Positions 5,372-50,687 of a stretch of 64,000 bases of DNA are shown here, one piece after another (the first letter of the stretch is position 1; the number at the start of each line of letters is the position of its first letter). Where the stretch lies: assembly GCA_007693605.1 (NCBI GenBank), contig REDG01000055.1, positions 14,353 through 78,352 of the forward strand, written 5' to 3'. Under the pieces are notes generated by a model that was not told the DNA's origin, searched no databases, and saw only the letters and a list, made by a program, of their open reading frames with translations. This stretch comes from Bradymonadales bacterium (GTDB lineage: Bacteria; Bdellovibrionota; UBA2394). Both the position numbers and the translations under genes were made by a program.

Positions 5372-5387
5372 TGGCATCGAGATTGCT
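5372..5387 (+). promoter_or_regulatory. sigma54 (RpoN) -24/-12 promoter upstream of the TPR-HK-RR-flgB operon
   Basis: TGGCAT-cgaga-TTGCT; GG (5373-74) and GC (5385-86) separated by exactly 10 nt; the same TGGCAT-N5-TTGC form recurs at 41214 and 48915. Confidence 0.6.
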
Positions 5388-39926: not shown

Positions 39927-41087
39927 GTGAAAGAGAGAGACATCATCGCAGCTCCTGTTTCAGATGGGTCGCGCAAATCCTTAAGTAAGACAGGCATCTA
40001 CTTTGGGCAAACTGGCCAGCCAGTGCTTGTGCTTGCAACGAGCTGTCAGGAGCTGAGCGCCCCTGTCTACGAGATTACTGATCCGGCCCCCGTTTGCGAT
40101 AGGCTCTCTGCGAGCCAACACCTCTTAGATAAAAGCTTTGTTGTCTGCTTGAAGTCTTTTTTTCAACTGGGTGGAAAGAGACTGATTGTGATGCCGATTC
40201 AGATTGAGACCGGCGTCGAAGATTTGGCTTCAGAGTATCGGACGAAGCTTCTGGGTGTTGACGGTGGCTTTGGCAATCGAACGGGCATTCATCGTTTGAG
40301 GGACTTTGAGGCCTGCGGCGACTTGTTGGCTTTCCCGCAGGCTGCGGTTGTCCTCGGATCTGAAGATCTCAGCGCGTTTTATCAGGAAGTTCAGAATTTT
40401 CTGGAACGGAGAAGCCATCATTTTTTACTGATGGATCCGCCCTGCTATACAGACTCAGAAAAGCTGAGAATTTGGGCCAGGACATTTCAGTCTGAGATGA
40501 GCGCTTTGTTTTTTCCTTGGGTTTCGGTGCCTGGCTTAGGCCTCACGCCCGCGTCCATTTTGGCGGCAGCACTGATTCAGCGGAATGATTTTCAGCATAG
40601 CATTTCGACGACACCAGCGAATCAGGTGATCGATGCCAAACTTGAGCTCCTGAAAGAGATTCCGAAGGCTGAAGTCGAGGCTCTTAATCAAGTTCATGTG
40701 AATGTCTTTAGGCGAAAGCCAAACTCGGACCTCGTTCTCTGGGGAGCCTTTACTACCTCTAAGGCCGGAGATCATCGCTCGCTCATTCACTTAAGTCGAA
40801 GCCTTTGGAGCCTGAAAGACGCCTTTGAGAGAGTCACAGAATCGCTCGTTCTTGAGGCTCGAACGGAATCCACCTGTGAAAAAATCCATCGAAGTCTTGA
40901 GGCCTTTTTAGAGAACTGTCAGCGAGAGGGACTCTTGGTCGCTCGACCTGGTCAAAAGGCTTATCGCATTGAGGTGGAGTTGATGGCACAAGGGAAAGGG
41001 CAGTGGGATTCTGGCATTCAGATTCGCGTTGATGTCGCTCTCGAAAGTGCCGACCGTTTTGTAGGATTGCAGCAGGAAATTTCGTAG
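39927..41087 (+). CDS. divergent CIS tail-sheath paralog
   Basis: Colinear with the sheath at 41902: NRTGIHRLRDF / KRTGINVFNN, FLLMDPP / FALLDCE, ALFFPWVSVPG / ACYFPWVRVYD, VNVFRRKPNSDLVLWGAFT / INLIRDFGDMGIKVYGARTLT; lacks the N-terminal PGVY motif; GTG after AAGGAGG. Confidence 0.7.
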   Translation: MKERDIIAAPVSDGSRKSLSKTGIYFGQTGQPVLVLATSCQELSAPVYEITDPAPVCDRLSASQHLLDKSFVVCLKSFFQLGGKRLIVMPIQIETGVEDLASEYRTKLLGVDGGFGNRTGIHRLRDFEACGDLLAFPQAAVVLGSEDLSAFYQEVQNFLERRSHHFLLMDPPCYTDSEKLRIWARTFQSEMSALFFPWVSVPGLGLTPASILAAALIQRNDFQHSISTTPANQVIDAKLELLKEIPKAEVEALNQVHVNVFRRKPNSDLVLWGAFTTSKAGDHRSLIHLSRSLWSLKDAFERVTESLVLEARTESTCEKIHRSLEAFLENCQREGLLVARPGQKAYRIEVELMAQGKGQWDSGIQIRVDVALESADRFVGLQQEIS

Positions 41088-41110
41088 GGCTCGCCCTACA
41101 GGCTGTAGGG
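41083..41110. promoter_or_regulatory. candidate enhancer (UAS): three GTAGGG/CCCTAC hexamers including the palindrome CCCTACAG-g-CTGTAGGG
   Basis: CGTAGGG (41083-89), CCCTAC (41094-99), TGTAGGG (41104-10), 105-130 bp upstream of the sigma54 promoter; the same CGTAGGG/TGTAGGG pair recurs at 48827-48853. Confidence 0.45.
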
Positions 41111-41213
41111 TTTTCACAACATACTCAATTGATTGAATTCAGACTTTGTCTCCCGGCTCCCCTTGTAGAGCCTTTTTTCTCGATATTGAGCCTCTTGCTG
41201 CATTGAAACTTTT

Positions 41214-41229
41214 TGGCATGCCTCTTGCT
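41214..41229 (+). promoter_or_regulatory. sigma54 -24/-12 promoter of the main CIS operon
   Basis: TGGCATG-cctc-TTGCT; one mismatch to TGGCACG-N4-TTGCW; GG/GC spacing exactly 10 nt; 40 nt upstream of ATG 41270. Confidence 0.65.
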
Positions 41230-41269: not shown

Positions 41270-41905
41270 ATGCAGTCAAAGGATTTTCTGAAATCATTAA
41301 CTCAGTTCTTAGTTCAGTTTTTGAATCGAGAACTTGAACGAGAAGGCTTCGGCAGTCGCTTTCGAGTGGAGGCGGGCTTAGAAGAAGTCAGCTCAGATGT
41401 CGACAAGAGAGGCTTCTGGAATCGTCTTGGTGGTCAAAGCCTTACTCGAGCCTTTCTACAGTCTTACTCCGTCCAGCGGATTCAGAACTCTCGAAACTCA
41501 GTTCTCAAAACAGAAGAGGTCGAGAAAGACGGAGAACGATTCTTTGTCAATCGTCGTAGCCCAGAGACCCTTGAAATCAAGTATCTTTTGGTGGGACCTT
41601 CTTTGGCCTCGAACGAAGGTCAAGAGCTCTACGCCGCCCTCTTTACAATCTTTTTTGATCACCTTCAAGTCGAGTGGTCCCGTGGGGATCAGACGGAGAC
41701 TCTTAAGCTCAATGATCTAAACGAAGAGGATGAGCCTCGAGCTCAAGCTTTACTTACAGAGCAGGGTATCTCAACGCTGCCTCTCTATTCATTTAGTGTT
41801 CGCGTGCCAATTGCGTCGGGTCGAGTGATATCTCAAGACCATCGTGTTTTGCACCGAGATCTTCAATTCAAACGAAAAACAACATCTGGAGGAAAACAAT
41901 CATGA
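41270..41905 (+). CDS. putative DUF4255 (Pvc16/Afp16 N-domain-like) tail terminator/cap protein
   Basis: About 210 aa, first gene of the operon just before the sheath as in many eCIS loci; LEIKYLLVGPS..EGQELYAALFTIFFDH resembles the DUF4255 core; moderate. Confidence 0.5.
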   Translation: MQSKDFLKSLTQFLVQFLNRELEREGFGSRFRVEAGLEEVSSDVDKRGFWNRLGGQSLTRAFLQSYSVQRIQNSRNSVLKTEEVEKDGERFFVNRRSPETLEIKYLLVGPSLASNEGQELYAALFTIFFDHLQVEWSRGDQTETLKLNDLNEEDEPRAQALLTEQGISTLPLYSFSVRVPIASGRVISQDHRVLHRDLQFKRKTTSGGKQS

Positions 41906-48335: not shown

Positions 48336-48708
48336 CAAGGCGTTCAACTGTTTTTCATTTTGGGCTGAAGCGGATTCCGCTTCTGTGATCGCGCGTACGA
48401 GTTTAGAAGAGCATATTCGCCAGTCCATTTTGATTTGTCTCTTTACAGAAAAGGGAGAACGGCCGCTGCAGCCAGAATTTGGCAGTCGCCTCAGCCAGTT
48501 TGTCTTTCGTTCCGCCGATGCCAGCTATCTCAGTCAACTTTGCAAAGAGGTGAGGACTTGTTTGGAGGCTTTTGAGCCCCGAATCGAGCTTAGAGAGCTC
48601 TATTGCGAGACTTCCGAGCATGAGTCCGCTCCGTTGAGCATTCATTTGAGTTATCTCATCAAAGAGCTGGGGACTCATCAGTCGATGAAGATTCCATTCA
48701 ATCTTTAA
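48325..48708 (+). CDS. GPW/gp25-family baseplate wedge protein (Afp9-like)
   Basis: IRQSILICLFTEKGERPLQPEFGSRLSQFVF and EAFEPRIEL are the gp25 motifs. Confidence 0.85.
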   Translation: MQSSKAFNCFSFWAEADSASVIARTSLEEHIRQSILICLFTEKGERPLQPEFGSRLSQFVFRSADASYLSQLCKEVRTCLEAFEPRIELRELYCETSEHESAPLSIHLSYLIKELGTHQSMKIPFNL

Positions 48709-48780
48709 GGGAGTGTCGCTAAAGGCCCATCTGCTTCGGCTGCTCGGTTGGACCACTGGGCCAGCAAAGGCGATGAAATG
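48709..48780. repeat. interspersed intergenic repeat, copy E (inside the CIS locus)
   Basis: GGGAGTGTCGCTAAAGGCCCATCTGCTTCGGCTGCTCGGTTGGACCACTGGG immediately after the gp25 stop. Confidence 0.7.
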
Positions 48781-48816
48781 TGTTGTCTTTTCTTGTCTGG
48801 CACTTTCGTCTCCCGA

Positions 48817-48856
48817 CCCCAACGAATGTAGGGAATCCCCCACATTCGTAGGGGCT
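48817..48856. promoter_or_regulatory. tandem 20-bp units carrying TGTAGGG and CGTAGGG (candidate UAS)
   Basis: CCCCAACGAATGTAGGGAAT / CCCCCACATTCGTAGGGGCT; 60-90 bp upstream of the sigma54-like promoter at 48915. Confidence 0.4.
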
Positions 48857-48914
48857 CCCCAACACAGGGCTTCTTTGAAATGGCCGAAAACCCCCTTCTG
48901 GGGGCTTTTCGGGA

Positions 48915-48930
48915 TGGCATACGACTTGCG
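48915..48930 (+). promoter_or_regulatory. second sigma54-type -24/-12 element, upstream of baseplate J
   Basis: TGGCAT-acgac-TTGCG with correct GG-N10-GC spacing; only 14 nt before ATG 48945, the same spacing as 5387 to GTG 5402, implying a near-leaderless transcript. Confidence 0.4.
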
Positions 48931-48944
48931 TTATCCCATGAGCG

Positions 48945-50687
48945 ATGAGCCTGCCTCAACTAACAGAACGAGAAAAACAGCTAAGTGAAGACCTATTCCG
49001 TCAGGCTCCTCTAGCCGACTCTTCAAGTGGTGGTCCTGGGTCTAGACCTCTTGCGTCCGATCCCCTGAGAATTTTGACTGAGTTTGTTGCCTGCGTGGCG
49101 GGGCAGATTCGAGCTGATATTGAGCAGATTCCCTCTGGCCTGATTCATGAGATTCCAGCGCTCTTCGGGTTGGGTGCAGAGAAGGCAAAGCCGGCTCGGG
49201 CTTTCGTGCGAATCTCCTTGGGGGATAAAATCAGCGAGAGCTTTTATCTTCCGGCCGACACGGACTTTAGCATTTCGAATGCCTCTCAAAGCTTCCACTT
49301 TCGAAGTCGAGAAAGCCTGCTCCTTTTCTCTGTCGGACAGATGGACATTGTATATGAGAAGGGAGCGCTTTTCTTGGGATTTGAACGGCTTCCTCAGTCT
49401 CACAATCCTCGTTTCTATTTTGAGCTAGAGAGCTCTCACGAGCGAGTGAAGGGTCAGTGGTCGATTTTAACAGAGTCGACATGGCTTCCGTTGTCCACAG
49501 CAGATCGTACCGAGCAGTTCAGCAAAAGTGGATTCATTCAATTTTTTCTCTCTGACTTCGATTTGCGTTCTCAAAACCTTCATGGACAGAACCGCATCTG
49601 GCTGCAATTCAGGTCAGAGGCTCAGCAGGAGGTGCTTCCGGTTCGTCAGATCTATGACAATGTGGTTGAGTGCGAGAACTCGAAAACCTATACCGAGCTT
49701 TGTTTGGGATCTGGAGATGCACGAGTGTCGCAGACATTTTCTCTACCCCATGGTCAGGTCACAGACGACTTTCAGGTCAAGGTGTTCAATGGCGAGAAGG
49801 GGGGCTTTGAGCTGTGGCATCAGGTGTCGAACTTTCTCTTGTCTTCTGATCGGTCGAATCATTTTACCTATGATCCAAAAAATTCAGAAATTCAGTTTGG
49901 CGACGGATACCGTGGAAGAAGACTTCCGCCAGGATATGACAATGTTTGGATCGAGTCGTTGAGCCTTTGCGACGGTAGTGCTGCCAATCTCGGCAGAGAG
50001 GCTGAGGTGGCTCTTTCGAGTGAAGACTGGCGGATACAATCGCTTGCTCTCATTTCTGACATTCAGGGAGGGGTTGATGCGGTCACGGGCCAAGATCAGA
50101 TAAAACGGCTTCGAGCGTTGCTGATTAATCGGCAGAGGGCAGTGACCCTAAAGGACTTCGAAGATCTAGCAGTAGAGTTGGCCCCGAGAGTGGGGCGAGC
50201 CTATGCCCAGTATAAAGATTTCGGTGTTCTAGTGCTTCCCATTTTAAAGCCCAATTATTCGAAAAAAGCCTCCACACTCAACTTTGAGCCGAGAGACTCC
50301 GATCTTGAATTTCTAAAGAGGGAGTTGCAGGATTTAAAACTTCTCAACACCGACATGAGGGTTCAAAGCCCAAGCTATCGAGCCTTTCGGGTAGAAGCGT
50401 CCATCTTTATCAAAACACTTACTTCAGAAAACAAAACAGAACTTGAGGAGACTATTCTCAGCTTCTTTTCGCCCTTTGGACCCCTCCAGCAGAGAGTGAG
50501 GCCCGGCATGATGATTCAAAGAGATGAGTTTCATCAGTTTATTGAAAAAATTCCAGAAGTGATCACGGTAAGGAATCTACGAATCATAGATGAAGTTTCT
50601 AAGCTCTGCGTTGACCAGCTTGATCTTGTCCACGATGAGCTTCCCGCCGTGAAGCTGGCACTCAAAATCGAGGAGAGAATGAGATGA
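48945..50687 (+). CDS. baseplate J-like protein (Afp11-like)
   Basis: 580 aa; SDPLRILTEFVACVAGQI, KPARAFVRISL and RAVTLKDFEDLAVE resemble Baseplate_J family landmarks. Confidence 0.8.
   Translation: MSLPQLTEREKQLSEDLFRQAPLADSSSGGPGSRPLASDPLRILTEFVACVAGQIRADIEQIPSGLIHEIPALFGLGAEKAKPARAFVRISLGDKISESFYLPADTDFSISNASQSFHFRSRESLLLFSVGQMDIVYEKGALFLGFERLPQSHNPRFYFELESSHERVKGQWSILTESTWLPLSTADRTEQFSKSGFIQFFLSDFDLRSQNLHGQNRIWLQFRSEAQQEVLPVRQIYDNVVECENSKTYTELCLGSGDARVSQTFSLPHGQVTDDFQVKVFNGEKGGFELWHQVSNFLLSSDRSNHFTYDPKNSEIQFGDGYRGRRLPPGYDNVWIESLSLCDGSAANLGREAEVALSSEDWRIQSLALISDIQGGVDAVTGQDQIKRLRALLINRQRAVTLKDFEDLAVELAPRVGRAYAQYKDFGVLVLPILKPNYSKKASTLNFEPRDSDLEFLKRELQDLKLLNTDMRVQSPSYRAFRVEASIFIKTLTSENKTELEETILSFFSPFGPLQQRVRPGMMIQRDEFHQFIEKIPEVITVRNLRIIDEVSKLCVDQLDLVHDELPAVKLALKIEERMR

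Follow-up and report, generated by a model that had tools for sequence, protein, structure and literature searches.

The DNA examined here is a 64,000-nt window (C16:14353-78352 of the source genome, labeled G000) that carries a gene cluster for a contractile injection system (CIS) other than a type VI secretion system (T6SS). Our subject is the region between two genes of this cluster in which an original prediction had placed a sigma-54 promoter and an enhancer-like array of hexamers. The source genome is an uncultured metagenome-assembled genome (MAG) of 2.19 Mb in 79 contigs, with 49% GC and 90% completeness, and the closest named relative for the CIS cluster is a Bdellovibrionota MAG. The region follows a gene for a sheath-like paralog (39927-41087, plus strand; Pfam Phage_sheath_1), which has 28% identity to its equivalent in the related cluster L014. 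It precedes the operon that we term P1, whose first gene (41270-41905, plus strand) encodes a 211-aa protein without a family assignment. Genes for sheath, gp19-type tube, AAA+, DUF1257, radical SAM, gpD-type hub, pentapeptide, and gp25 proteins follow, the last ending at 48708. After a 236-bp gap, further baseplate genes start at 48945 with the first gene of the P2 operon (48945-50687, plus strand; 580 aa, no family). Judged against the related cluster L019, the true start of this gene is probably the ATG at 48952. The original prediction spoke of the region as standing in front of the main CIS operon; with the sheath-like gene upstream, it lies inside the cluster.

Close relatives of the cluster were reached via sheath homologs and look-up of their contigs; an alignment search with the sheath returned distant metagenome loci only. 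Sheath identity to the window is 93% for L019, 84% for L020, 82% for L021, and 78% for L023, with the more distant L014, L024, and L025 at 75-78%. In L019, L020, L021, L023, and L034, too, the regulatory region comes directly after the sheath-like gene. For the 211-aa first gene, no relatives were found in 40 related genomes, metagenome contigs, or the protein database.

Both operons are preceded by sigma-54-type motifs on the plus strand. P1 (TGGCATgcctcTTGCT, 41214-41229; predicted start ~41239) ends 40 nt before the ATG at 41270, and P2 (TGGCATacgacTTGCG, 48915-48930) has a predicted start at ~48941. Judged on YTGGCACG-N4-TTGCW, the GG-N10-GC spacing is exact at both P1 (TGGCATGCCTCTTGCT) and P2 (TGGCATACGACTTGCG). 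The pattern TGGCAY-N5-TTGCW has two matches in the window vs 0.04 expected. Genome-wide, TGGCAY-N5-TTGC occurs 43 times, and the same words at spacings of N2-N4 and N6-N9 occur only 3-8 times each; about nine-tenths of the N5 matches are therefore expected to be functional. The genome encodes rpoN (Sigma54_DBD match on C30, E=1e-63) and 12 genes for bacterial enhancer-binding proteins (bEBPs), that is, proteins with a sigma-54 interaction domain. At the P1 position, between the sheath-like gene and a ~210-aa gene, TGGCAY-N5-TTGC is kept in the five relatives L019, L020, L021, L023, and L034, and the second promoter, after gp25, is retained in L019 as TGGCATaggctTTGCG. No sigma-54 motif was found at the equivalent gap of L014, L024, and L025, where the gap is longer and AT-rich or the upstream context is another one. 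The predicted sigma-54 promoter at 41214-41229 is thus supported by the presence of rpoN, the N5 excess, and conservation, and P1 and P2 are very likely real RpoN promoters.

The elements upstream of P1 proved to be differently organized than predicted. The hexamers CGTAGGG (41083-41089), CCCTAC (41094-41099), and TGTAGGG (41104-41110), the palindrome CCCTACAG-g-CTGTAGGG (41094-41110), the GG-N10-GC spacing, and the 40-nt distance are all present where they had been placed. However, a model built from seven upstream regions aligned on GTAGG identifies the GTAGGG hexamer as a left half-site: the full unit is an 18-bp dyad, TGTWGG-N6-CCWACA, and it occurs in pairs with 19-23 bp from one start to the next. 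The hexamers are therefore half-sites of paired dyads rather than units of an array. The palindrome on which the original prediction laid stress simply spans the point where the right half of dyad A meets the left half of dyad B; at other sites 2 to 5 nt separate the two dyads, while the inner spacer is constant at 6. The P1 pair consists of the distal dyad A1 (41083-41100; CGTAGGGCTCGCCCTACA, CGTAGG-GCTCGC-CCTACA), centered at about -148, and the proximal dyad B1 (41104-41121; TGTAGGGTTTTCACAACA, TGTAGG-GTTTTC-ACAACA), centered at about -127. The TAG stop codon of the sheath-like gene (41085-41087) falls within A1.

A second pair lies 5′ of P2, with TGTAGGG at 48827 and CGTAGGG at 48847 as its left half-sites. 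It comprises dyad A2 (48827-48844; TGTAGGGAATCCCCCACA, TGTAGG-GAATCC-CCCACA; center ~-105) and dyad B2 (48847-48864; CGTAGGGGCTCCCCAACA, CGTAGG-GGCTCC-CCAACA; center ~-85). YGTAGGG and dyad scans agree with the earlier claim that these sites recur at the second CIS promoter and not at the flagellar sigma-54 promoter at 5372, near which no YGTAGGG was found. The tandem scan also returned a possible weak third dyad with three mismatches (41060-41077; TGTAGGATTGCAGCAGGA), 23 bp 5′ of A1 and within the coding sequence, which may be a chance match. Over 22 dyads, the half-site composition is T36/44 G42 T40 W35 G42 G36, and YGTWGG-N6-CCNACA sites are present at all 11 promoters examined. The layout of a dyad pair plus promoter was found again in five related metagenomic clusters, with TGTGGGCATTTCACAACA (L019) and TGTTGGTTTTTCACAACA (L034) as the sites orthologous to B1. 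L014, L024, and L025, which lack the promoter, also lack the dyads.

The specificity of these elements was assessed across the genome. GTAGGG is rare, with 421 copies on both strands vs a hexamer mean of 1067, and the hexamer is thus not simply common genome-wide. Its clusters number 7 vs 4.6 in random placement, which is weakly above chance, and the window holds 6 copies of YGTAGGG vs 4.2 expected. Because the window count is at chance and the clusters barely exceed random, the hexamer alone does not carry the signal. The dyad does: single dyads with ≤1 mismatch number 24 at N6 vs 6-12 (mean ~10) at N3-N5 and N7-N9, and tandem dyad pairs with ≤3 summed mismatches number 5 at N6 vs 0 at each of the six control spacings. 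The original prediction had proposed a genome scan for the paired motif; the five tandem pairs that the dyad scan yielded are the two window sites, C18:19414, C72:36057, and C9:1384. A sigma-54-type promoter lies 56-110 nt 3′ of every one of them, the three outside the window being TGGCACatctcTTGC (C18), TGGCACgcaatCTGC (C72), and AGGCACagaacTTGC (C9, minus strand).

Four of these five promoters precede injection-system genes, including two unlinked tube paralogs. At C18:19414-19987 (L028) and C72:36057-36646 (L029), the promoters stand 5′ of T4 gp19-like tube genes, which were recovered blind, since the dyad search used no gene content. The fifth, at C9:1-1423 on the minus strand (L030), stands 5′ of a gene for a protein of >430 aa whose signal peptide is of the lipoprotein type (…LLVSC) and whose sequence runs into poly-Gly at the contig edge. 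This protein has no Pfam or NCBIfam match and may be an unrecognized component or cargo of the injection system. On C48, a single good dyad lies ~40 nt 5′ of a sixth sigma-54 promoter, before a gene for a small membrane protein, and we treat this promoter as a candidate member only. Together, the five modules form a predicted regulon centered on the injection system. As for what lies 3′ of the two unlinked tube genes, one is followed by genes for unknown proteins of 348 and 146 aa, and the other by genes for a LysM protein, an unknown 295-aa protein, and a C-type-lectin-like protein of 651 aa.

The geometry of the modules is consistent with activation from a distance. The centers of the proximal dyads lie at -73.5, -83.5, -83.5, -84.5, -85.5, -87.5, -94.5, -105.5, -126.5, -127.5, and -127.5 relative to the predicted starts, near 7, 8, 9, 10, and 12 helical turns. 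Phasing between proximal dyad and promoter gave a Rayleigh peak at 10.5-11 bp (R=0.81, p=2e-4, n=11), and with orthologs collapsed the signal persisted (R=0.79, p=0.003, n=8; Monte Carlo also 0.003). Despite sequence divergence, the window, L019, and L034 all have a P1 spacer of 91-92 nt, and the two P1 dyads, being 21 bp apart, lie on one face of the helix. Such phasing is what a looping activator requires and is meaningless for an RNA element. Given the tandem dyads, their genome-wide specificity, and their phasing, the earlier claim of enhancer-type sites at bEBP distance finds good support in the sequence. In our view, this region is likely to be a sigma-54 promoter of the classical type, served by an upstream enhancer of two sites.

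The identity of the activator was approached through gene neighborhoods. As the original prediction had stated, the window holds a single bEBP gene, the flagellar one. In L020, a gene for a response-regulator bEBP ends 3 nt 5′ of the sheath-like gene. The order in L034 is periplasmic binding protein, histidine kinase, bEBP, sheath-like gene, and then the dyads and promoter, and L023 has a hybrid kinase at the bEBP position. The one clear G000 ortholog is encoded at C76:33737-35167, with 66% identity to the L020 bEBP and 74% to the L034 bEBP; the next paralog reaches 34%. This protein contains a receiver domain with the receiver aspartates, an AAA+ domain with GAFTGA, and a Fis-type helix-turn-helix (HTH_8), and on domain architecture only, it is assigned to the NtrC class. 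It scores under the NCBIfam equivalog cut-offs for AtoC (361 bits vs 714), NtrC (341 vs 559), and NtrX (338 vs 600). In the L014 genome, whose cluster has neither promoter nor dyads, no C76 ortholog was found, the best match having 37% identity.

Scanning the strict tandem pattern over 400 genomes of the phylum gave 17 matches in 15 genomes vs 8 for a backwards control. The bEBP family is present in 10 of these 15 dyad-pattern genomes vs 64 of the 385 others (Fisher p=4e-5, with kinship ignored). In G072 and G251, which belong to different families, dyads lie 19-70 nt 5′ of the start codon of the bEBP family's own gene, an arrangement commonly seen where NtrC-type regulators control their own expression. 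In G149, G065, and G263, dyads occur with sigma-54 promoters before unrelated genes. The cross-genome dyad scan therefore indicates that the bEBP family, with its operator, predates the lineage-specific link to the CIS and is more widespread. No dyads were found near the C76 bEBP gene itself in G000. The idea of a CIS-specific activator accordingly stands in part: a candidate exists, outside the window on C76, but one of the five promoters drives the lipoprotein-like gene, and dyads in other families precede unrelated genes. That the C76 bEBP acts at these sites appears reasonably probable from the sequence comparisons.

Other readings of the repeats have to be weighed against an enhancer. They could act in the RNA, where the sheath-like gene ends, as a terminator or attenuator that sets the ratio of paralog to operon, with stems formed by GTAGGG/CCCTAC or CCCTACAG/CTGTAGGG followed by UUUU, the sigma-54 match being separate or incidental. 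The stop codon does lie within the first arm, the choice between 1:2 and 2:3 pairings recalls an attenuator, L021 and L034 have T-runs after the sites, and the A1/B1 junction folds as a 7-8 bp hairpin plus UUUU at -11.2 kcal/mol. Yet a terminator scan passed over the GTAGGG hairpin, which is followed by 4 T only, and when both gaps and ten sites were folded, the folds differed among orthologous sites and no hairpin was shared. Mismatches between half-sites are uncompensated, with 94 of 132 positions complementary and position 4 pairing in 8 of 22 dyads. The commonest dyad form, TGTAGG...CCAACA, has an A-A mismatch, so that sequence is kept and pairing is not. The dyads on C18, C72, and C9 occur where no gene ends upstream, the inner N6 is fixed where the junction varies, promoter phasing has no meaning for RNA, and Rfam gave no match beyond one chance-level hit. 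We regard this explanation as very unlikely, although, going by the folding model, the A1/B1 junction hairpin may have a second role as a weak terminator. That the hexamer clustering is functionless, being due to chance or a dispersed-repeat remnant, would fit the unremarkable counts of YGTAGGG in the window and of clusters in the genome (7 vs 4.6), as well as the dispersed-repeat insertion directly 5′ of the second pair. BLAST of both gaps against the genome, however, found the dyad regions to be unique and only 48709-48822 to be repeated, and the 5 vs 0 excess of tandem dyads and the layout kept in five other assemblies leave this reading next to no credibility.

The dyads may also be genuine protein sites that serve a regulator other than the C76 protein, either a non-bEBP such as a repressor or nucleoid-type protein or another of the 12 bEBPs. 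The lack of linkage between the C76 gene and the cluster in G000, the conservation of the Fis-type recognition helix over a very wide family, and the dyads before unrelated genes in other Bdellovibrionota families would agree with this. We nevertheless hold it to be unlikely. The position at -73 to -148, the tandem arrangement, and the helical phasing are hallmarks of bEBP enhancers, and no tandem pair in G000 lacks a sigma-54-type promoter 3′ of it. In addition, L020 and L034 have bEBP orthologs right next to the cluster, dyads precede the family's own gene in G072 and G251, and the co-occurrence across genomes (p=4e-5) ties the family to the pattern. Several observations weigh against the enhancer reading or its proposed activator. 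Comparators are few (5 related clusters) and partly orthologous, and conservation counts are not fully independent. Only 3-11 nt separate the predicted start from the start codon at P2 and in most relatives, which is unusual and would leave the Shine-Dalgarno sequence outside the mRNA. No integration host factor consensus was found between enhancer and promoter, and the A1/B1 junction hairpin described above belongs here as well. The C76 assignment draws on synteny and co-occurrence only, for a gene unlinked to the cluster in G000; the genomes G005 and G008 of the same family have homologs with 50-59% identity and no strict-pattern match; and the recognition helix, nearly invariant across the wide family, cannot discriminate.

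The gaps that hold the two modules contain further features. Between the P1 dyads and P1, a consensus scan flagged 41155-41172 within a terminator-like hairpin, GGCTC-N8-GAGCC plus TTTTTT (41155-41178, plus strand), whose role may be to keep transcription of the sheath-like gene from reading through, or to provide a bendable T-tract. L021 and L034 likewise have T-runs here, but the hairpin itself is not conserved. A segment at 41140-41163 was considered as a degenerate copy of a ~29-nt repeat and rejected, as BLAST found no repeat in this first gap and the segment aligns better to the L019/L021 spacer. In the second gap, sequence and fold revealed a strong inverted repeat, CCGAAAACCCCC-ttct-GGGGGCTTTTCGG (48884-48912, plus strand), made up of an A-tract, a GC stem, and a T-tract. 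It ends 3 nt 5′ of the P2 -24 element and is not conserved in L019. Its shape is that of a bidirectional intrinsic terminator, and the P1 transcript may end there or be kept apart from that of P2. An insertion of two dispersed short repeats (48709-48822, plus strand) occupies the stretch from the gp25 stop to A2, with the X end at ~48712-48742 and the Y end at 48795-48822. L019 has no such insertion in its equivalent gap, and the insertion does not belong to the switch; the P2 gap measures 236 bp vs 111 bp in L019 because one X...Y unit was inserted.

Repeat X, with the core GTCGCTAAAGGCCCATCTG, has ~98 genome copies at ≤2 mismatches and is often extended to ...CTTCGGCGGCTGCGTCGCTGCGCTTCTCGA; further copies in the window lie at ~27679, 30908, and 38123 (C16:42031, 45260, 52475). 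Repeat Y (CTAGTCTGGCACTTYCGTCTCCCGACCCC) has ~45-55 genome copies, often 27-316 nt 3′ of X in the same orientation or in head-to-head pairs, and the two resemble the ends of an element like a miniature inverted-repeat transposable element. As regards the promoters, near-leaderless mRNAs are predicted at L019:2831-2866, L020:7332-7365, L021:1125-1156, L023:4500-4532, L034:8973-9004, and 48915-48952 of the window, and P1 of the window has a 31-nt leader carrying GGAG. The -24 element is tandemly duplicated (TGGCAYGA-TGGCATA) at L019:2822-2846 and L034:8964-8988 and single in the window, where the -12 block GCCTCTTGCT is repeated instead (41190-41199 and 41220-41229). Near the candidate bEBP gene, a sigma-54-like motif, TGGCCCctgtcTTGCA, stands at C76:35391-35406 (L027:7392-7407) 5′ of a diverging gene for an unknown 415-aa protein, with no dyads nearby. 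MotA/ExbB-ExbD genes lie directly 5′ of the sheath-like gene in distant clusters without sigma-54 control (L024/L025:4599-5703 and a JGI contig), and a MotA/ExbB gene is found near a bEBP homolog at L036:9979-10704.

A mechanism can be proposed from these elements. RNA polymerase with RpoN would bind TGGCAT-N5-TTGCT (41214-41229) as a closed complex, and an NtrC-class bEBP, as a dimer of dimers or a hexamer, would occupy the dyads at 41083-41100 and 41104-41121. DNA looping would carry its ATPase to the polymerase, and ATP hydrolysis would open the promoter. The module at 48827-48864 and 48915-48930 would drive the second half of the cluster, and with three further copies of the module, two of them on unlinked tube paralogs, the whole machine would be switched on together. 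The activator would most likely be the response-regulator bEBP of C76:33737-35167. This protein would presumably be phosphorylated by a histidine kinase, which in relatives adjoins the bEBP gene and a periplasmic-binding-protein gene. Sequence elements, genome-wide specificity, conservation, phasing, and neighborhoods were computed; that the sites are bound, that RpoN is needed, where transcription starts, and which bEBP of the 12 is at work are what we infer.

The arrangement has known counterparts. In enteric bacteria, the NtrC (NR-I) enhancer of glnAp2 has two dyad sites 100-140 bp 5′ of a TGGCAC-N5-TTGC promoter and acts through looping. The modules described here likewise combine a promoter of the TGGCAC-N5-TTGC type, two dyad-symmetric sites two to three turns apart, and a candidate response-regulator bEBP with a Fis-type HTH, and, as with NtrC, sites stand before the regulator's own gene (here in G072 and G251). 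They differ in the operator, which is TGTWGG-N6-CCWACA here and TGCACC-N5-GGTGCA for NtrC, and in the target, a contractile injection system rather than nitrogen assimilation; the C76 protein, moreover, remains under the NtrC, AtoC, and NtrX equivalog cut-offs. The upstream activator sequence of NifA is TGT-N10-ACA, lies 80-150 bp 5′ of a sigma-54 promoter, and depends on the face of the helix. The dyads share with it the invariant TGT...ACA ends, the upstream position, and a face-of-helix relation to the promoter, but have TGT-N12-ACA spacing and an extended TGTWGG half-site, and the candidate regulator has a receiver rather than a GAF domain.

The nearest known parallel is the control of T6SS clusters by sigma-54 and bEBPs, through VasH in Vibrio cholerae and through Sfa2/Sfa3 with RpoN in Pseudomonas aeruginosa (reviewed in PMC10482370, PMC3804575). 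As in those systems, a contractile sheath-tube machine would be expressed from RpoN promoters by a dedicated bEBP, often encoded in or beside the cluster, with satellite tube (Hcp-like) loci co-regulated with the main cluster. Unlike a canonical T6SS, the cluster described here has a phage-type sheath, a gp19-type tube, an AAA+/DUF1257/radical-SAM cassette, and gp25/gpD baseplate genes. VasH-type bEBPs, moreover, are not known to have a receiver domain, whereas the candidate here is a two-component response regulator. A literature search turned up no publication that connects RpoN with extracellular or phage-like injection systems. The mechanism is a classical one. Within the scope of that search, the novelty lies in the operator sequence, the regulon, and the candidate regulator.

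To our knowledge, little has been established about what turns on phage-tail-like injection systems outside the T6SS, and nothing in the case of Bdellovibrionota. In this cluster, the circuit can be read from the sequence as a promoter, a set of operator rules, a regulon of five promoters, a named candidate activator, and, in relatives, a kinase and a binding protein. With sigma-54 enhancer biology already textbook, the value lies in the regulon and not in a new principle: the regulon ties unlinked tube paralogs and a lipoprotein-like gene to the machine, and it offers a route to heterologous induction of the system and to its natural trigger. We advance, with the case for and against evenly balanced, the broader proposal that a Bdellovibrionota-wide family of response-regulator bEBPs with an undescribed operator was co-opted in this lineage to act as master switch for a non-T6SS CIS, its kinase receiving a signal via a periplasmic binding protein. 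If this is true, phage-tail-like injection systems outside the T6SS would gain their first described sigma-54/two-component regulon. The switch would co-ordinate the two main-cluster operons with the two satellite tube loci, and the machine would be built only on sensing a specific extracellular small molecule, possibly derived from prey or host.

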